A DNA stretch of 44,391 nucleotides, taken from assembly GCA_002763085.1 (NCBI GenBank), contig PFCY01000093.1:17697-62087 (forward strand). The letters are read 5' to 3'. Of this stretch, positions 33,824-44,342 are shown piece after piece; within the stretch, counting starts at the first letter, position 1, and every line of letters begins with the position of its first letter. The notes beneath the pieces are model-generated. The model was given only the letters and a program-made list of their open reading frames with translations, was not told where the DNA came from and did no database searches. The stretch comes from Candidatus Pacearchaeota archaeon CG10_big_fil_rev_8_21_14_0_10_32_14. GTDB lineage: Archaea; Nanobdellota; Nanobdellia; Pacearchaeales; GW2011-AR1. The translations under genes were made by a program, and so were the position numbers.

Positions 33824-34318
33824 CTAACAATCCTCATCATCTTGCTCATTTTCGTTATCATCTATATCTTCATTCAAATTATCTAGATCTTCATTCAAAT
33901 TATCTAGATCATCTTCCATATCTGCTTTGTCATCTGCGTCAGTTTCCGCCGCAATATCATCTTCTAAATCTGAAATTTCATTTTCAAGATCATCTATTTC
34001 ATTTTCAATATCGTCGTGTTCATTATCAAGTTCATCACAGACATCAACTTCAGGAACCACATCAATTTGGCTCTTTAATTCTTCATTCTCTGTTTCAAGA
34101 GATTTTATTTTCAAATTTTGGTCATTATTAAAACTTTTATATGATGAAATATCTTGACTTAATTTTTTGTTTTCATCTTGAAGAGTCTTGAATTCTTCTG
34201 AACTTACCGCATTTCCTGTTAATATGGCCTTTCCAAATATTGTTCCGAAAAAAAAGAATACAAATACTAAAACGATTGCGCCAATAATAACATATTTATT
34301 TTCCATAAAGAGATACAA
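33824..34318 (-). CDS. Membrane-anchored coiled-coil protein with an extremely acidic D/E/N repeat tail
   Basis: N-terminal TM helix, heptad-like region, then DDIENEIDDLENEISDLEDD...DLDNLNEDLDNLNEDIDDNENEQDDEDC. Confidence 0.5.
   Translation of the reverse strand: MYLFMENKYVIIGAIVLVFVFFFFGTIFGKAILTGNAVSSEEFKTLQDENKKLSQDISSYKSFNNDQNLKIKSLETENEELKSQIDVVPEVDVCDELDNEHDDIENEIDDLENEISDLEDDIAAETDADDKADMEDDLDNLNEDLDNLNEDIDDNENEQDDEDC
33866..33907. repeat. Perfect 2 x 21-bp tandem duplication inside the acidic-tail gene
   Basis: ATCTTCATTCAAATTATCTAG occurs at 33866-33886 and again at 33887-33907, encoding DLDNLNE twice on the minus strand. Confidence 0.95.
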
Positions 34319-38103: not shown

Positions 38104-38610
38104 ATGGAATTTGATAAAGAAGGGAAGTTCAAAGAATTCTCAAAAATAAATGACTTATTGCTAAATGGATGTGAATTAATCCCTGAAGATAAAGGAGTTT
38201 ATATTGTAGTTAGAGAATCAAATAATAATCCTCTTTTTAATGAATCTAATCAACACTATATTAAAAAAGGAAAAAAGATTAATTTAAGTTATTCAAAAAC
38301 ACATCTTAAGGAAATTTGGAATAAATTAAACAATCACAATATAATCTATATTGGAAAAGCCAATGGAAAGGGTGGATTGAGGAAAAGGATAAAAGATTAT
38401 ATTAGGTTTGGTATGAGAACACAGGAAAAAATAGAGAAGAATGGTGTTTGTCATAGAGGTGGTAGGGCTATTTGGCAATTAGAGGATTATAGAGAACTAA
38501 AGATATACTGGAAAGAGTCAAATAACCCAAGAACAAAAGAAAAAGAATTAATAACCAACTTCAAAAAACAAAATAATGGAAACTGGCCATTTGCAAATAG
38601 GAGTGATTAA
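38104..38610 (+). CDS. GIY-YIG nuclease-domain protein
   Basis: GVYIVV (GIY), IIYIGKA (YIG), LRKRIKDY (conserved Arg), H-RGGRAIW, EKELI (Glu), PFANR (Asn), all in canonical order. Confidence 0.65.
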   Translation: MEFDKEGKFKEFSKINDLLLNGCELIPEDKGVYIVVRESNNNPLFNESNQHYIKKGKKINLSYSKTHLKEIWNKLNNHNIIYIGKANGKGGLRKRIKDYIRFGMRTQEKIEKNGVCHRGGRAIWQLEDYRELKIYWKESNNPRTKEKELITNFKKQNNGNWPFANRSD

Positions 38611-38612
38611 TA

Positions 38613-38882
38613 ATGAAAATTCATAAAGGAAGAGATTTTAAGAAAGCTGTATCAGATGCTCTGAAAAGTGGGAATTTGACTATAACTAGTTCAGATGGTG
38701 AAACCGACGAACCTGCGGTATGTGAGATTTGTGGCAAGATGATTGGAGATGTCTTGGATTCTTATGCTTATCATTGTATTAATGATGATAATTATGTTGA
38801 TGTTGAGGAAAAGTGTTTTTGTACCAGAAAGTGTTGGAATAAGTATTTGAAGAGAGAAGCAAAAGATATCGAAGCAAACTGA
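38613..38882 (+). CDS. Small zinc-ribbon-like protein, hypothetical
   Basis: 89 aa with CEIC...HC...CFCTRKC cysteine pattern. Starts 2 nt after the GIY-YIG stop. Confidence 0.45.
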   Translation: MKIHKGRDFKKAVSDALKSGNLTITSSDGETDEPAVCEICGKMIGDVLDSYAYHCINDDNYVDVEEKCFCTRKCWNKYLKREAKDIEAN

Positions 38883-38924
38883 ATATCTAATCAGTTTAGT
38901 TTAATTTATCTGAACCAAACGAAA

Positions 38925-38935
38925 CCTTTAAAAAC
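38925..38935 (+). promoter_or_regulatory. TATA box for ParB-like 1, bracketed by the inverted repeat CCAAAC/GTTTGG
   Basis: CCTTTAAAAAC, centre 25 nt upstream of ATG 38956. CCAAAC is at 38915-38920 and GTTTGG at 38939-38944. Confidence 0.45.
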
Positions 38936-38955
38936 TTTGTTTGGGTAGAATTTTG

Positions 38956-39966
38956 ATGAAAAACAACACACTTTATGATGTCGAGAAAATAGCCAATGCT
39001 GAAAGTATTGATGTAAAGCTAGAAGACATTAAATTAGATTCCTATAATGTTAGATTTCTTCATTTACCACAAAAACTTTCAGATAAGGAGATTGAAGAAA
39101 TCTTGTGGGATGAAAAGGATACAACTGAGTTATATAGACAAATCCTTTCTGCAGGGGGAGTATATGAAGAACCCGTATTAAATTCTGAGTTAATTGTAAT
39201 TGAAGGAAATAGAAGGATTGTCTGTTTAAGAAAACTAAAGCAAGAAGCCAATAAAGGGGGACTTCCGGGAATATCAAAAAATCATTTTGATAAGGTGAAG
39301 TGTAAGATACTTCCAAAAAATACTCCCCCACAGATAATTGACATATTCCTGGCCACAATTCATGTAAAAGGGAAGAAGCCCTGGAATGCATTTAATAAAG
39401 CAAAACATATTTTTAATCTGTATGATTCTGGTGGATTTAGCTATGATGATTTGTCTAAAAAATTAGGTATGGGTAAATCAACAGTTATAAGGGCTGTTGA
39501 AGTTTATGGCGCAACACAAAAGTATGGAGATAAATATAAGGCTGACAAGGAGTGGTTCAGAAAATTTACTTATTTTGATGAATTGTATAAAAGAAAAGAT
39601 TTGAAAGAATTCAGAAAGGAAGATAAAAATCTAGAAAGATTTGAAAATTGGGTTTTTCATAAAAAGTTAGATGATGTTAGGGAAGTTCGTCAATTAGCAA
39701 AGATATTGCAAGATGAAGATGCCTTTAAAGAATTTGAAAAAAATGACTTTGATGCAGCTATGAACCTCATAGGACTAAAAGATCCTTCTATAAATAGTGT
39801 AGAATTTAAAAAAATTAAAGACACAATAGATGTTCTAAGAAATTTTTCAAGAAAAGAATTATCAAAAACTGTTAAAGATGATTCAAGATTAAAGTTGCTG
39901 AATTCATTAAAAAAGGAGATTGATAGTTTAGTAAAAGATATTACATCAATGAAAAAAACATCATAG
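38956..39966 (+). CDS. ParB/Srx N-terminal-domain protein with a central HTH (ParB-like 1)
   Basis: LIVIEGNRRIVCLRKL (ParB box II arginine patch), HTH candidate SYDDLSKKLGMGKSTVIRAVEVY, K/E-rich helical tail. Start set at ATG 38956, 25 nt from the TATA centre; the track start at 38941 is TTG. Confidence 0.75.
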   Translation: MKNNTLYDVEKIANAESIDVKLEDIKLDSYNVRFLHLPQKLSDKEIEEILWDEKDTTELYRQILSAGGVYEEPVLNSELIVIEGNRRIVCLRKLKQEANKGGLPGISKNHFDKVKCKILPKNTPPQIIDIFLATIHVKGKKPWNAFNKAKHIFNLYDSGGFSYDDLSKKLGMGKSTVIRAVEVYGATQKYGDKYKADKEWFRKFTYFDELYKRKDLKEFRKEDKNLERFENWVFHKKLDDVREVRQLAKILQDEDAFKEFEKNDFDAAMNLIGLKDPSINSVEFKKIKDTIDVLRNFSRKELSKTVKDDSRLKLLNSLKKEIDSLVKDITSMKKTS

Positions 39967-39977
39967 TCAATATTGAC
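39966..39977. repeat. Perfect 12-bp palindrome GTCAATATTGAC at the stop codon of ParB-like 1
   Basis: Self-complementary by direct reading. Its first base (G, 39966) is the last base of the TAG stop (39964-39966). Confidence 0.9.
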
Positions 39978-39990
39978 ACCAGGAAAAACA

Positions 39991-40032
39991 TTAAGGGATT
40001 GCTTGTTATTACCAAGCAAGTTAGTCCCTTAA
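39991..40032. repeat. Compound inverted repeat TTAAGGGA-TTGCTTG / CAAGCAA-(gttag)-TCCCTTAA
   Basis: 7-bp inner stem and 8-bp outer stem with a 7-nt loop and a 5-nt bulge, read directly. TCCCTTA recurs at 40075. Confidence 0.85.
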
Positions 40033-40042
40033 TGCCTTTATT

Positions 40043-40067
40043 AAAAGTAATAACATTTATTACTTTT
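40043..40067. repeat. 11-bp perfect-stem hairpin AAAAGTAATAA-CAT-TTATTACTTTT (terminator and/or operator)
   Basis: Read directly. Followed by a T-run, and it overlaps the TATA-like CTTTTTAAAGTA upstream of ParB-like 2. Confidence 0.8.
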
Positions 40068-40113
40068 TAAAGTATCCCTTACCAATAGGGAAGAACTAAA
40101 AAATCAACACAAA

Positions 40114-41502
40114 ATGAAAAATGAAAAATTAAGTATAAAAAATATTAAAATAAAAGACTTGAAACTCTGGGATGAAAATCCTAGATTCCCTGAAGAATAT
40201 TTTAAAAAACCGGAGAAAGACTTAATTGGGTATCTATTCAAAAAAGAAAATTCACGAATGATTGATTTAGCAAAATCTATTTCAGAAAATTTTAATTTAA
40301 TTCCTTTGGAAAGATTGGTTGTTTGGAAATCCGGTAATGGGCTAATTGTTTTAGAGGGAAATAGGAGAATAGCCATTTATAAAATACTTAGTAACCTCTT
40401 TCTTCTTCCTGATAAAAAAAATATAAATTTCTTCAATGAAAAATCAAAACAATTAGCAATTAACGAAAACTTTGAAGTGGAATGTATAGTTGTAGATGAT
40501 AGAGAAGAGGGGCTAAAATATGTAGATTTGAAACATTTAGAAAAAGGATATAGTAATTGGCAAGAGTCTGAAAGAATAAATTTTCAGAAAAGAAGAGGGA
40601 TAAGTATGGGGGAAAAAGAACTAGTTAAACACGATATAAATAGGATTGTCAAAGGTTTAGATTTACCAGAAAAAATAATCGATAAAATATTAGGGCAAGG
40701 AAATTTAACAACATTTTACAGAATTATTGCAAGTACTCCAGCAAAAAAGTATTTTGGTTATGAAATAAAAGAAAATAACTTGATTATTGAAGATAAGGAT
40801 TTTGAATCAAAACTAAAGATTATCATCTGGCAAATAATCAACAAAAAAGATTTTAAGAATAATGTGATCAATTCTCGTTCATTGAATACCATCGAAGATA
40901 TTGAAAAGTATCTTAAGAATATAGACCTAAAAAGAGACTATTCTAAATTAAATGAAGATTTAAAAAATTCCGTTAAATCCAAAATTGATGTTTTTGGGAA
41001 AAAGACAGAAGAATTTGTTTTACCTATAGAAGACAATTTCAAAAAGAGTAAAAAGAGCCCCATATTAACAATTGAGGATAAACTCTTTGGTAAAACTCTT
41101 TGCTTAAAAAAGGGGAAGGTCAACAATCTTTATTGCGCAATGGATAAAATTTATGAACAAAATAAATATAACGAAAAAAATCTAGAGTTGGTTTTGCCGA
41201 TTCTAGGAATATCATTACGATTAATCTTAGATGTTGCAGCAAGGGAGTATTACTCTGAAGAAGAATTAAAAAAAGACAATACTCCCTATAGAACATTTTT
41301 AAAAGAAATTAAACAGAAATTCAGAGATGATGCAAAATATAAAAATCTTAGTACACTAACTTTATCTTGGGTTATTTCAGATACAAATTTTGAGAACATA
41401 ATAGATCATTATGCTCATGATAGTATAATCTATACACAGAATGATATATTGAAAATCTCAAAAATTATTGGAGAAATTTTGGAGTGTTTTTTTAAAATAT
41501 GA
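40114..41502 (+). CDS. ParB/Srx N-terminal-domain protein fused to a ~300-aa uncharacterised helical C-terminal region (ParB-like 2)
   Basis: LKLWDENPRF and LIVLEGNRRIAIYKIL are paralogous to the upstream ParB-like N-domain. The C-terminal region has no motif I can name (LRLILDVAAREYY, IIDHYAHDS). Confidence 0.7.
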   Translation: MKNEKLSIKNIKIKDLKLWDENPRFPEEYFKKPEKDLIGYLFKKENSRMIDLAKSISENFNLIPLERLVVWKSGNGLIVLEGNRRIAIYKILSNLFLLPDKKNINFFNEKSKQLAINENFEVECIVVDDREEGLKYVDLKHLEKGYSNWQESERINFQKRRGISMGEKELVKHDINRIVKGLDLPEKIIDKILGQGNLTTFYRIIASTPAKKYFGYEIKENNLIIEDKDFESKLKIIIWQIINKKDFKNNVINSRSLNTIEDIEKYLKNIDLKRDYSKLNEDLKNSVKSKIDVFGKKTEEFVLPIEDNFKKSKKSPILTIEDKLFGKTLCLKKGKVNNLYCAMDKIYEQNKYNEKNLELVLPILGISLRLILDVAAREYYSEEELKKDNTPYRTFLKEIKQKFRDDAKYKNLSTLTLSWVISDTNFENIIDHYAHDSIIYTQNDILKISKIIGEILECFFKI

Positions 41503-42356
41503 CATTTTATTCACCACTTAGGTACCCTGGAGGAAAGGCGAAGTTAGTTGGATACTTTAAAGACTTAATTACACAAAATGGAATTAAGGGTGGAACATAT
41601 GTAGAAATTTATGCTGGAGGAGCTTCTATTGCACTTTCTCTTTTAATAGAGGGATATGTTTCTAAGGTTATAATCAATGATAATGATAAATCTATTTATG
41701 CCTTATGGTATTCCATATTAAATCATCCTAGGAAACTTTGCAATTTAATCAAAAAAACTCCATTAACTATAGAAAATTGGCGAATTCAAAAAGAAATACA
41801 AAAAAATAAGGATAAACATGACTTATTGACATTAGGCTTTTCTACATTTTTTTTAAATAGAACAAATCGTTCCGGTATAATCAATGCAGGAGTTATTGGA
41901 GGATTAAATCAGGATGGAAAATGGAAAATGGATGCAAGGTTTAATAAGGAAAATTTGATCTCTAAAATTAAATTAATTGCTAAATATAAACATAAAATAA
42001 AGCTACACAATCTTGATGCAGTTAGATTAATAAGAAAAATTAAGAACCAATTACCTAAAAAAAGTTTGATATATCTTGACCCACCATATTACTACAAAGG
42101 AAAAGAATTATATATGAATTATTATGATTATGAAAGCCATAAAGAAATTTCAGAAGTTATAAAAAAAGTTACTAAAGTAAAATGGGTTATAACTTATGAT
42201 GATGTTGGAGAAATAAATCATTTGTATAAAGGATTTGATAACTATAGCTATCTTCTAAATTATAGTGCCGCTAATTCTGGAAAAGGAAAAGAAATAATAA
42301 TATTCTCTTCAGGAATGAATCATTCGTCAGAAGGATTGATTTTGACTCACTCCTAA
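41499..42356 (+). CDS. dam: Dam-type (D12 class) N6-adenine DNA methyltransferase
   Basis: SPLRYPGGKAKL N-terminal motif, FFLNRTNRSG, LIYLDPPYYY (DPPY catalytic motif). ATGA overlap with the upstream gene. Confidence 0.9.
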   Translation: MTFYSPLRYPGGKAKLVGYFKDLITQNGIKGGTYVEIYAGGASIALSLLIEGYVSKVIINDNDKSIYALWYSILNHPRKLCNLIKKTPLTIENWRIQKEIQKNKDKHDLLTLGFSTFFLNRTNRSGIINAGVIGGLNQDGKWKMDARFNKENLISKIKLIAKYKHKIKLHNLDAVRLIRKIKNQLPKKSLIYLDPPYYYKGKELYMNYYDYESHKEISEVIKKVTKVKWVITYDDVGEINHLYKGFDNYSYLLNYSAANSGKGKEIIIFSSGMNHSSEGLILTHS

Positions 42357-43000
42357 ACCTTCACACACCATTCACAACCCTTCTTAGGACAATCCCCTTC
42401 TAATAATCTCAAAGCTTTCTTCCAAGCATCCTCAGCCATTTTAATATTAACTTTCATCTTTACTAAACTTGTATCAAAAACAACCTCTCCTGTTTCTGTA
42501 ACTTCTTTAGGAACATAGAAAAGTAAGAAGAAGTAATCCTCTGTTTGATAACCATTTTTTCTTAATAAGAAATTATAAACATTTTGTTGTAATCTGTAAT
42601 GTTCTGCTGTGTCGTCTTTCAAAGCATGACCTCTGGTTTTGTAATCTAACACAACTAACTTTTTTCCATTTACTAAAATATTGTCAACTGCACCATGGAG
42701 TTCATTACCATTTTTATCTTTCCAACTAACACCTTTAAAGTTACTTTGCCAGATTTTCATCTTTTCTTTATCATTAAACAACTTCATACTTTCACAATGA
42801 GAATTATTACAAAGTTCAGGTGGAAGTAAATTTTTATCTCTGAATTTATCAAAATGTGTTTTTAGAATTCTATCCATTCCACTTGGAAGAGATGGAAATA
42901 TACCATTTGGTCTTTTCCAAACATTATGTTTATCTAACCAGAAACATCTTTCACATTCATTCATAAGATTTAGTGATGAGGGGGATAGTTTGAATGTCAT
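42353..43000 (-). CDS. Cas4/RecB-like PD-(D/E)xK nuclease with 4-Cys cluster ligands
   Basis: N-terminal CERCFW, GAVDNILV....LVVLDYKT (D...D-x-K), QQNVYNFLL (QxxxY), C-terminal CPKKGCEWC. Confidence 0.7.
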   Translation of the reverse strand: MTFKLSPSSLNLMNECERCFWLDKHNVWKRPNGIFPSLPSGMDRILKTHFDKFRDKNLLPPELCNNSHCESMKLFNDKEKMKIWQSNFKGVSWKDKNGNELHGAVDNILVNGKKLVVLDYKTRGHALKDDTAEHYRLQQNVYNFLLRKNGYQTEDYFFLLFYVPKEVTETGEVVFDTSLVKMKVNIKMAEDAWKKALRLLEGDCPKKGCEWCVKV

Positions 43001-43019
43001 TTTTTACTATAAGCAGGTA

Positions 43020-43032
43020 ACTTTAAAAATAT
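43020..43032 (+). promoter_or_regulatory. TATA box for the DUF5655-like gene
   Basis: ACTTTAAAAATAT, centre 26 nt upstream of ATG 43051. Confidence 0.45.
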
Positions 43033-43050
43033 TGGCTATATTCTATATTT

Positions 43051-44061
43051 ATGAAATCTGCAATTTACACTGAAGGGAATAAATTTGAAGAAACTATCTT
43101 TGAACTTGAAGAAGATTTAGAACTTAAAATTGTTGAAAATTCAAAATTGTTATTTGGGAAAAAAACGATTTATTTTGATATCAAAAATAAAATAGACACA
43201 AAATCGTTAGGTGCTACAATTCCTGATGGATTCTTATTTGATTTTAGAGATAAAGAAGCCCCAGAATTTTACCTTGTTGAAAATGAGTTAGCTAAACATG
43301 ATTTTTATAAGCACATTTTTCCCCAAATAACAAAATTCTTTGCTTTTTTCAAAAATCCAAAAAGTAGAGATAATCTCATTGAAAAACTTTTTTCCTTTAT
43401 TAAATCAAATGCTAAAATTGAAGAAGAATTTAAAAAATATCTTGGAAATAAAGAGATATATCGAACTCTTAAAGAAATAATTGAAAATAGCCAAAATATT
43501 TTAATAGTAATTGATGAAAATAAACCTGAATTTGATGAGGTTATGGAAACTTACACAGATACTTGGGACAAAATGGTAAGAATTGAAATTTTTAAAGAAT
43601 ACAAAGCAGGTAATAAAAGTATTTTTACCCTGAATCCAGACTTTGAAGATATAGGATTTATAGAACCTTCATATAAAGATGAAGTTGAAGAAAAATACAC
43701 TGAAAGTTTTCATTTAGATGGAACAGAAGAGAAAGTCAAGAGAATATATCAAAAAATAAAAGAAGAAATGTTAAAGATTAACTCTTCATTAATTTTTAAC
43801 CCCCAAAAATATTATATTTCAATTAGAGATAAGAAAAACTTTGCTTATTTTCATATTAAAAGAAAAAAGGTGAAGATTACATTAATGCTTCCTTACGAGA
43901 AAGGGGTAGAAAAAATAAAAAATCATCGTCTAAGAAAATATACTGAAGGTATAGAAAGATTTTATGGTGGCAACTCTTTTGAGATAACTATTGAAGAAGA
44001 AAAGAATTTGAGTGAAGTTATAGATTTAATTCTAGAATCATATCAAAAACAAAAAGATTGA
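43051..44061 (+). CDS. PD-(D/E)xK-like N-terminal domain protein with a DUF5655-like C-terminal domain
   Basis: IPDGFLFDF...EFYLVENELAKH resembles NucS/DUF91-type endonuclease cores. C-terminal KNFAYFHIKRKKVKITLMLP...FEITIEEEKNL resembles DUF5655. Confidence 0.5.
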   Translation: MKSAIYTEGNKFEETIFELEEDLELKIVENSKLLFGKKTIYFDIKNKIDTKSLGATIPDGFLFDFRDKEAPEFYLVENELAKHDFYKHIFPQITKFFAFFKNPKSRDNLIEKLFSFIKSNAKIEEEFKKYLGNKEIYRTLKEIIENSQNILIVIDENKPEFDEVMETYTDTWDKMVRIEIFKEYKAGNKSIFTLNPDFEDIGFIEPSYKDEVEEKYTESFHLDGTEEKVKRIYQKIKEEMLKINSSLIFNPQKYYISIRDKKNFAYFHIKRKKVKITLMLPYEKGVEKIKNHRLRKYTEGIERFYGGNSFEITIEEEKNLSEVIDLILESYQKQKD

Positions 44062-44066
44062 TAAAG

Positions 44067-44342
44067 TTATTTAATTACAGAAATAGTTTCTTTAATTAAT
44101 CCCTCTCTTATTATTTTCATGTTTTTCTTAAATACCCTTAAAACTTCGCCTTTAAGAGGTTTATCCTTAATTTTTATAAGTTCTTTTTTAACTTCTTTTG
44201 GAACTCCTTTTAAGTCATCTATACTTAACAGCCTTACATTTTTTTCATTCCTTAATATTTTCCATTCTTTGTCTTTACTTTTATGTTTGTCTAAATAAGA
44301 GCCTATCCACATAGACAGGCTCTCCAAGTAATAATTCCACAA
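44067..44342 (-). CDS. Small basic hypothetical protein; start uncertain (TTG in the track, first ATG 10 codons in)
   Basis: 91-aa ORF, K-rich. An upstream in-frame TGA bounds it. No homology recognised. Confidence 0.3.
   Translation of the reverse strand: MWNYYLESLSMWIGSYLDKHKSKDKEWKILRNEKNVRLLSIDDLKGVPKEVKKELIKIKDKPLKGEVLRVFKKNMKIIREGLIKETISVIK

Follow-up and report, generated by a model that had tools for sequence, protein, structure and literature searches.

PD-λ-5 was recovered by functional selection in Escherichia coli, where it blocks phages (Vassallo 2022, Nat Microbiol, PMC9519451). It was described as a compact system of restriction-modification (R-M) and abortive infection, with the components 'ParB/HEPN, methyltransferase', and its protection was among the broadest of the systems from the E. 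coli screen; its cloning needed a host with the mrr region deleted (PMC9519451). PADLOC and DefenseFinder list the system as PD-Lambda-5. Known settings of prokaryotic Dam-clade methylases include DpnII-type R-M systems and ParB-linked loci (PMC4738411), the ParB/Srx-superfamily domain is coupled to variable effectors and DNA-modification systems (PMC3632139), and orphan ParB homologues of archaea were noted in a 2025 survey (PMC12704722). Here, we describe a PD-λ-5-type locus in a 44,391-nucleotide stretch of DNA (the window) from Candidatus Pacearchaeota archaeon CG10_big_fil_rev_8_21_14_0_10_32_14 (contig PFCY01000093.1, positions 17,697 to 62,087). An initial annotation, made from the sequence alone, had read eight consecutive genes near its right end (g1 to g8, 38104–44342) as one undescribed, ParB-centred DNA-modification or defence module. 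All eight open reading frames (ORFs) are indeed present, at the positions given below. The block is probably a small defence island in the chromosome of this DPANN archaeon, located at a variable hotspot beside g6, with a PD-λ-5-type, R-M-like system as its core, preceded by g3. It is thus a known system in a lineage-specific three-gene variant, and an eight-gene machine is not supported.

The core and the elements that precede it are as follows.

38956–39966, plus strand: g3, a ParB/KorB/Noc-like protein of 336 aa with a ParB-N nucleoside triphosphate (NTP)-binding fold, a helix-turn-helix (HTH) and a helical C terminus (AlphaFold2 model, Foldseek)
39966–39977, no strand assigned: perfect 12-bp palindrome GTCAATATTGAC overlapping the g3 stop codon (conserved in relatives)
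39989–40034, plus strand: 46-nt imperfect palindrome or hairpin, a candidate operator, parS-like site or terminator (minimum free energy, alignment)
40063–40072, plus strand: TATA-like box CTTTTTAAAG, ~45 bp upstream of g4, the putative promoter of the A–B (or B) operon (five-locus alignment)
40114–41502, plus strand: g4, PD-λ-5 component A, with ParB-N (EGNRR, ENPR), an HTH-like middle and a variable C-terminal helical domain (PADLOC, AlphaFold2, Foldseek)
41499–42356, plus strand: g5, PD-λ-5 component B, a D12-class N6-adenine DNA methyltransferase with DPPY (PADLOC, Pfam)

Judged by their sequences, g4 and g5 are the core pair of PD-λ-5, a system that already has a name, and not a new class. 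g4 matches the PADLOC model PD-Lambda-5_A (PDLC03998) with an E-value of 8.8e-32 over residues 8–415 (profile positions 4–411 of 466), and 18 further PD-Lambda-5_A models match it as well. The match of g5 to PD-Lambda-5_B (PDLC04018) reaches 4.9e-121 over residues 1–277 of 285. The two genes lie on the same strand, A directly upstream of B, with an overlap of 4 bp, and a g4 relative in a GenBank Vibrio prophage record is labelled PD-Lambda-5_A. Membership was judged by the PADLOC models; the E. coli prototype proteins are RCQ13837.1 and RCQ13838.1. Since the PADLOC run assigns g4 and g5 to PD-Lambda-5, the earlier claim of an unnamed system falls, by that annotation's own reckoning, for the core. 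What stands is its view of a ParB-fold protein and a Dam-family methylase, coupled to each other and acting in defence or modification, as the centre of the block.

The Dam-type call for g5 is borne out by Pfam MethyltransfD12 (PF02086, 8.5e-20) and by the DPPY motif visible in the translation. Of the 4-nt palindromes, GATC is depleted most strongly in the window, with 96 copies observed against 169.5 expected (ratio 0.57), a hint at the target of the g5 methylase and no more. GGATCC is also rare in the window (1 observed, 4.2 expected).

Both g3 and g4 are predicted to adopt ParB folds, in agreement with the two ParB-N proteins first proposed. The AlphaFold2 model of g4 (predicted local distance difference test, pLDDT, 84.8) matches ParB-CTP, Noc and Spo0J with a Foldseek probability of 1.0, and also Srx. 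The g3 model (pLDDT 91.5, predicted template modelling score 0.80) has Noc, ParB-CTP, KorB and Spo0J as its top matches (E 1.8e-5, probability 1.0). These folds come from structure prediction, as neither protein matched a ParBc model of Pfam or NCBIfam. EGNRR and ENPR are invariant in the alignment of the g4 family. Within the g3 family, residues E88, G89, N90 and R92 of EGNRR are invariant and R91 is nearly so, and the EGNRR and N-terminal NxR motifs are invariant or nearly invariant in both families. Alignment of the two families with hhalign gave a probability of 94.8% over the N-terminal 200 residues, which corresponds to a shared ParB-N and HTH. The C-terminal ~130 aa of g4 are helical, with R369 and H435 invariant.

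The pairing of A with B is broadly conserved. We scanned one genome per GTDB species and found 80 loci with a g4 relative, mostly in bacteria of the candidate phyla radiation and Bacteroidota, and in a few archaea. A g5 homologue follows the g4 homologue in 76 of the 80, the gap between them is at most 98 bp in 67 of 73 measured loci, and B is better conserved than A in 75 of 76 (medians 51% versus 37%). g1, g2, g3, g6 and g8 occur in none of these 80 genomes; the other neighbours of A–B are heterogeneous defence genes (extra methylases, HsdMSR, DUF262-HNH, serine recombinases). When all eight proteins were compared with ~200 related loci (designated here by L and a number) by tblastn and jackhmmer, only A–B proved broadly conserved and only g3–B was kept in close relatives. 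The core of two ParB proteins, Dam and a Cas4-like nuclease, for which the initial annotation had proposed a test across genomes, is not co-conserved, and the g6 family is found beside unrelated R-M systems.

A side observation from these loci is an AAA_15/AAA_21 (OLD/ABC-like) ATPase of ~517–540 aa inserted between A and B (L092, 9364–10917; also L010, L048, L052 and L089). The loci that carry it are archaeal and bacterial, and form a three-gene variant of PD-λ-5.

The A gene differs sharply between loci with similar flanks. DNA homology between the window and the related locus L174 covers 38956–40078 (80.6%) and 41494–42655 (84%) and is absent across g4. The A alleles that lie in the gap (window 40079–41493, L174 9124–10543) are 28% identical, against 85–88% for the flanking genes, and the L174 allele is itself a strong PD-Lambda-5_A match (1e-116). 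Across loci, A alleles share 24–33% identity, compared with 72–85% for g3 and 80–88% for B. A thus behaves as a hypervariable cassette and is the fast-evolving component. One protein of the g4 family, P0080, is 39% identical to g4 over residues 5–270, beyond which a REase_DpnII-MboI domain (1e-41) replaces the helical C terminus. Taken with the cassette pattern, this effector swap indicates that in A the ParB-HTH front end stays constant while the effector can be exchanged, in keeping with restriction-like logic. In the g3 family, P0217 has a C-terminal NOV_C domain (1.8e-15), likewise a predicted nuclease domain, and the ParB-HTH module is thus reused with different effectors.

A more specific version of this idea is that g3, the PD-λ-5-type methylase and the palindrome, hairpin and promoter between them form a stable 'docking platform' in Pacearchaeota, at which highly divergent ParB-effector A cassettes are exchanged by recombination at fixed boundaries. 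We put this forward tentatively, as something possible but doubtful. If true, a ParB-family regulator would here gate a restriction system that swaps its cassettes, and the locus would provide the first functional context for orphan archaeal ParB proteins.

The link of g3 to the methylase, a part of the initial reading that is borne out in close relatives, holds in each case. A PD-Lambda-5_B-type methylase lies downstream of a close g3 homologue (72–85% identical) in all six Pacearchaeota contexts retrieved. Three of these have an A gene between g3 and the methylase (the window, L174 and L177), and in the remaining three (L179, L181 and L201) the methylase follows g3 directly. The flanks of the g3–methylase pair vary, and include thermosome, type I R-M, HaeII R-M and toxin-antitoxin genes. 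g3 is thus a lineage-specific, separable partner of the methylase that lies outside PD-λ-5 as described. Its family, of ~336 aa, is spread through DPANN archaea with 112 matches. The PADLOC candidate PDC-M38A is matched by g3 only at positions 87–234 of its 715, which falls short of full length.

The mechanical ORF of g3 begins at a TTG at 38941, whereas the gene callers (in both assemblies shown with the region) and all homologues begin at the ATG at 38956, which is probably the true start and gives 336 aa. DNA homology to the related loci sets in only at 38893–39046, after g2; where it begins at 38893–38913, it would take in a short promoter region.

Distant relatives of g3 adjoin other DNA-modification and defence genes, namely an N6_N4 methylase, a DndB-like protein, an SNF2 helicase and a MORC-like ATPase. 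In L098–L137 (for example L127, 1356–2510, and L124, 4394–4675) and L156–L172, a B12-binding radical-SAM enzyme and a small Cys-rich ORF of ~95 aa often stand ahead of the distant g3-family genes; the small Cys-rich ORFs upstream of distant relatives are unrelated to g2. Other genes of this set are g3 paralogues in tandem triplets, with a DndB-like protein, an SNF2 helicase and a MORC-like HATPase_c_3 protein encoded beside them. Such loci may be further uncharacterised ParB-linked DNA-modification systems.

The conserved DNA continues beyond g3 into a non-coding block. The palindrome GTCAATATTGAC is intact in the window, L174, L177 and L179; L201 differs from it by one mismatch, and in L181 it is degenerate. 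The hairpin that follows has a minimum free energy of −26.8 kcal/mol (z −4.6) and a mean column identity of 90% over five loci, compared with 67–84% in the flanking coding DNA; 97.9% of the cells in its alignment are paired, with two compensatory pairs among the five sequences. A search with the hairpin motif returned only copies of this contig or loci with a close g3 homologue, in every case a short way downstream of g3, and no Rfam family matched it. Each palindrome is present once in the 44-kb window, GTCAATATTGAC as much as the hairpin, with no extra copy of either. The TATA-like box CTTTTTAAAG is nearly invariant in the five-locus alignment, whether A or B comes next. The palindrome, with its one mismatch, and the hairpin recur in the sixth context, L201. 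We infer that the block serves as the operator and promoter of the methylase operon and is probably bound by g3.

These elements can be assembled into a working model. g5 would methylate host DNA at its motif, and g4 would load on DNA via its NTP-binding ParB-N domain and HTH and read the modification state. On unmodified, invading DNA, g4 would fire its C-terminal effector ('HEPN' in the E. coli prototype, a DpnII/MboI-type domain in a relative). g3 could bind the palindromes between its own gene and the A–B promoter, and either control expression of methylase and effector, in the manner of an R-M C-protein or KorB, or act as a loading factor.

The locus extends the A–B pair into DPANN archaea. 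It shows A as modular, with a ParB-HTH front end and a swappable effector, and reveals a lineage in which a second ParB, without an effector, has been gained beside conserved palindromes. The locus also bears on how the ParB NTP switch couples to self/non-self discrimination, and a concrete role for archaeal orphan ParB homologues (PMC12704722) can be proposed from it.

The remaining five genes surround this core.

38104–38610, plus strand: g1, a GIY-YIG superfamily protein of 168 aa with a ~45-aa insert between the GIY and YIG strands (relatives' Pfam matches, conserved residues)
38613–38882, plus strand: g2, a small Cys-rich protein of 89 aa, a possible Zn ribbon (six Cys, sub-threshold matches)
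42353–43000, minus strand: g6, a Cas4/RecB-like PD-(D/E)xK protein with Cys ligands (PDDEXK_1 match)
43051–44061, plus strand: g7, a protein with a C-terminal DUF5655 domain (Pfam match)
44067–44342, minus strand: g8, a small basic ORF of 81–91 aa (23 K+R versus 13 D+E)

Because g6 and g8 lie on the minus strand, the eight genes are not one operon. The Cas4/RecB-like call for g6 is sustained by a PDDEXK_1 match (1e-8), a weak Cas4 match and cysteines at positions 16, 19, 204, 209 and 212. As a CRISPR-associated Cas4 it was rejected: it scores 24.4 bits against the cas4 model TIGR00372, whose cut-off is 65, there is no array, and no cas genes were seen in the inspected neighbourhoods of the block and of g6 homologues. 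The g6 family has 2,576 homologues, the top 120 of which are 75–91% identical across DPANN archaea. Homologues with 78–82% identity adjoin type I R-M, type III R-M, GmrSD-DUF5655, RadC, or PCNA and primase genes, without g3, A or B, and the position of g6 relative to the methylase and g3 is different in every locus. We therefore rejected g6 as the nuclease of the system, given its housekeeping-like conservation and its occurrence beside other R-M systems. As it is found beside whatever R-M system is local, g6 marks the hotspot; from its distribution, it behaves as the conserved anchor of a variable defence hotspot rather than as a system component.

The g6 family (215 aa) also matches phrog_31195 (5e-37), and it repeatedly adjoins RadC together with variable R-M genes (L190, L193 and L195). 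The homologue in L174 (11406–11981) keeps the C-terminal half only (88% over residues 114–215) and has a shorter, different N terminus, which suggests recombination inside that gene.

We read g1, g2, g7 and g8 as independent neighbours, not as parts of the module. g1 had no direct Pfam match, its best sub-threshold hit being DUF123 at 0.053, and its profile aligns to the GIY-YIG motifs of UvrC at a non-significant E-value. Support for the GIY-YIG assignment comes from its relatives (892), of which 31 were aligned, five matching GIY-YIG (4.2e-5), three GIY_YIG_2 (5.1e-6) and one DUF123. It comes also from the conserved catalytic residue set, in which G31, Y33, Y82, G84 and R95 are invariant and E146 and N165 nearly so. 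With its six cysteines and sub-threshold matches to zf-FCS and DUF7576, g2 is plausibly a Zn ribbon. The DUF5655-like call for g7 was correct, as a C-terminal DUF5655 domain is found at 2.5e-10; its match to the PADLOC model PDC-S18 is confined to that part and so is not full-length. A g7 homologue (49% identical) is present in L190 at a distance of 4 kb from a g6 homologue, without g3, A or B, and g7 thus looks like a recurrent defence-island neighbour. g8 is small and basic, as had been noted, matches no family and was found only in copies of the same contig. Homologues of g1, g2 and g8 were absent from the ~200 related loci. Sequence-only searches of the PDB with g1, g3, g6 and g7 gave no significant match.

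The left flank of the block is cellular, as the 14 kb upstream hold STT3, a Na/H exchanger and glycosylation enzymes. To the right, the longest assembly carrying the block ends ~45 bp beyond the window, and other assemblies that extend past g8 (L004–L009, from several independent samples and assemblers) stop within ~130 bp of it. That contigs from several samples and assemblers stop near g8 suggests that the DNA directly to its right is a repeat or strain-variable. CRISPR array-like repeats, tRNA genes and Rfam families were not found in the window. Two adjacent 21-nt tandem-repeat arrays (2.4 and 3 copies, 33860–34036) lie inside the minus-strand ORF at 33824–34318.

How, then, should the block be read? 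The eight genes are contiguous and all DNA-directed, which would suit one new ParB-centred, modification-dependent system with up to three nucleases (GIY-YIG, Cas4-like and DUF5655/PD-(D/E)xK-like) as effectors; in five Pacearchaeota loci, g6 homologues are also no more than 5 kb away from g3, A or B, and a DUF5655 gene accompanies g6 in L179. Synteny has already largely refuted this reading, and we consider it highly improbable. Five of the eight genes are missing from every one of the 80 A–B genomes, g1, g2 and g8 are absent from every related locus, and the conserved DNA block begins only after g2. Homologues of g6 and g7 occur without g3, A and B beside other R-M systems, g6 varies in position and strand relative to the methylase in every locus, and its housekeeping-like conservation (75–91% for the top 120 of 2,576) is unlike that of the fast-evolving A. 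Rather than three nucleases working around one methylase as one machine, a defence-island hotspot explains the gene content better. The block could instead be the edge of an integrated plasmid or virus, with the ParB-like proteins serving partition or maintenance and the methylase anti-restriction or addiction. The closest likeness of the ParB-HTH folds is to partition and repressor ParBs. In several assemblies the contig ends directly after g8, as can be expected in variable or mobile DNA, P2-like and Vibrio prophages contain relatives, and serine recombinases lie near A–B in seven of the 80 loci. Such an origin is nonetheless very unlikely and was rejected. The visible block, as the initial annotation had pointed out, holds no ParA, integrase, replication or capsid gene, and neither do the 14 kb upstream; g4 scores 13 bits against TIGR00180 parB_part (cut-off 58.45) and g3 does not match it. 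Among 2.9 million viral contigs there were only three matches for the A family and seven for the g3 family, phage and plasmid matches were weak only, each palindrome occurs once, and flanking direct (att-like) repeats were not found.

A third possibility concerns g3 and the Dam-family methylase alone, as a housekeeping pair of Pacearchaeota for epigenetic control or chromosome organisation (an orphan methylase with a Noc/KorB-like ParB), possibly with g6 as in Dam/MutH-type repair, into which A was inserted as a selfish or defence cassette. That g3–B occurs without A in three contexts agrees with this, as do the far better conservation of g3 (69–85%) and B (59–88%) than of A, the conserved intergenic element, the resemblance of g3 to the DNA-binding ParB, Noc and KorB and not to nucleases, and the nearby core-like g6. 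The g3 family is, however, patchy, with 112 matches versus 2,576 for g6, and the pair is found in or beside R-M systems, between HsdS and HsdR in L177 and beside a HaeII R-M system in L181. B also matches PD-Lambda-5_B equally strongly where A is lacking (2e-121), flanking genes differ between loci, and distant g3 relatives adjoin N6_N4 methylase, DndB-like, SNF2 and MORC-like ATPase genes. We regard this alternative as unlikely. The preferred reading, a defence island with a PD-λ-5-type core, rests on direct results for gene content, folds, operon structure, conservation patterns and the anti-phage phenotype of the prototype.

Several points weigh against the defence-island reading or the model built on it. 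Anti-viral protection is shown for the E. coli PD-λ-5 only, and our literature search found no published molecular mechanism for the system. The HEPN assignment could not be reproduced for g4, since its C-terminal region has no Rx4-6H motif, no Pfam match and a Foldseek probability of 0.08 to a HEPN-like chain. The requirement for Δmrr in E. coli suggests that the methylase of that system has a non-GATC site. L090, a close archaeal A–B relative, lacks g3; together with g3–B without A in L179, L181 and L201, this means that the three genes are separable. The covariation of the hairpin rests on five sequences, and 40 of 500 shuffles score equally. The regulatory role of g3 is pure inference, and the hairpin could be a simple terminator or an RNA element. 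Finally, the end of the contig after g8 may leave room for a mobile-element context on the right.

Compared with described systems, the locus shares parts with several. Similar to KorB, Noc and chromosomal ParB, which are CTP-dependent clamps (KorB being a transcriptional repressor), g3 and the N-terminal two-thirds of g4 have ParB-N and HTH with a GxRR P-motif, and g3 stands beside conserved palindromes, as ParB and KorB genes stand near parS or OB sites. The motif here is GNRR rather than GERR, so that an asparagine takes the place of ParB's catalytic glutamate, with a presumed effect. Here, the genes linked to g3 and g4 encode a methylase and not segregation proteins, and each palindrome is single. 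A ParABS partition system would reach the TIGR00180 threshold and have a ParA partner and repeated parS palindromes, features not seen here; no ParA-family gene was called in the block or in the inspected related loci.

Systems of the DUF262 type (DndB, SspE, GmrSD/BrxU) likewise combine a ParB/Srx-superfamily N terminus with variable effectors and DNA modification, and Foldseek gave weak structural matches to GmrSD-N and to DndB-like phage proteins. Pfam models for DUF262, DGQHR and DndB did not match g3 or g4, nor were DUF262 or DndB found in 37 g4 relatives. The motif of the present proteins is EGNRR, not DGQHR, and their partner is a D12 methylase, not a Dnd, Ssp or glucosyl-hmC-dependent system. 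R-M C-proteins offer a parallel for g3, an HTH protein directly upstream of a methylase and effector operon with palindromes before a promoter-like box; g3 differs in being 336 aa long with a ParB NTP-binding domain, not an 80-aa Xre-type protein, and its binding and regulatory roles are proposed. DpnII/MboI type II R-M systems, in which the methylase DpnM is paired with a restriction endonuclease that cuts unmethylated DNA, share with the locus the D12-family methylase, the REase_DpnII-MboI domain of the g4 relative P0080 and the GATC depleted in the window. g4 itself has no recognisable endonuclease domain, and its N-terminal 300 aa form a ParB-HTH module that classical type II endonucleases do not have.

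The closest system remains PD-λ-5, with the same two-gene operon of a ParB-fold A with a variable C terminus followed by a D12-class methylase B. The host here is a DPANN archaeon, whereas the prototype comes from an E. coli prophage, and a canonical HEPN motif is not detectable in g4. g3 and the palindromic block are an addition found in the six contexts with a close g3; neither the 80 A–B genomes nor L090 nor PD-λ-5 as described with two genes has them, and three of the six contexts combine g3 and B without A. What looks new is this arrangement of g3 and methylase in Pacearchaeota, with its cassette-like A and its conserved regulatory block.

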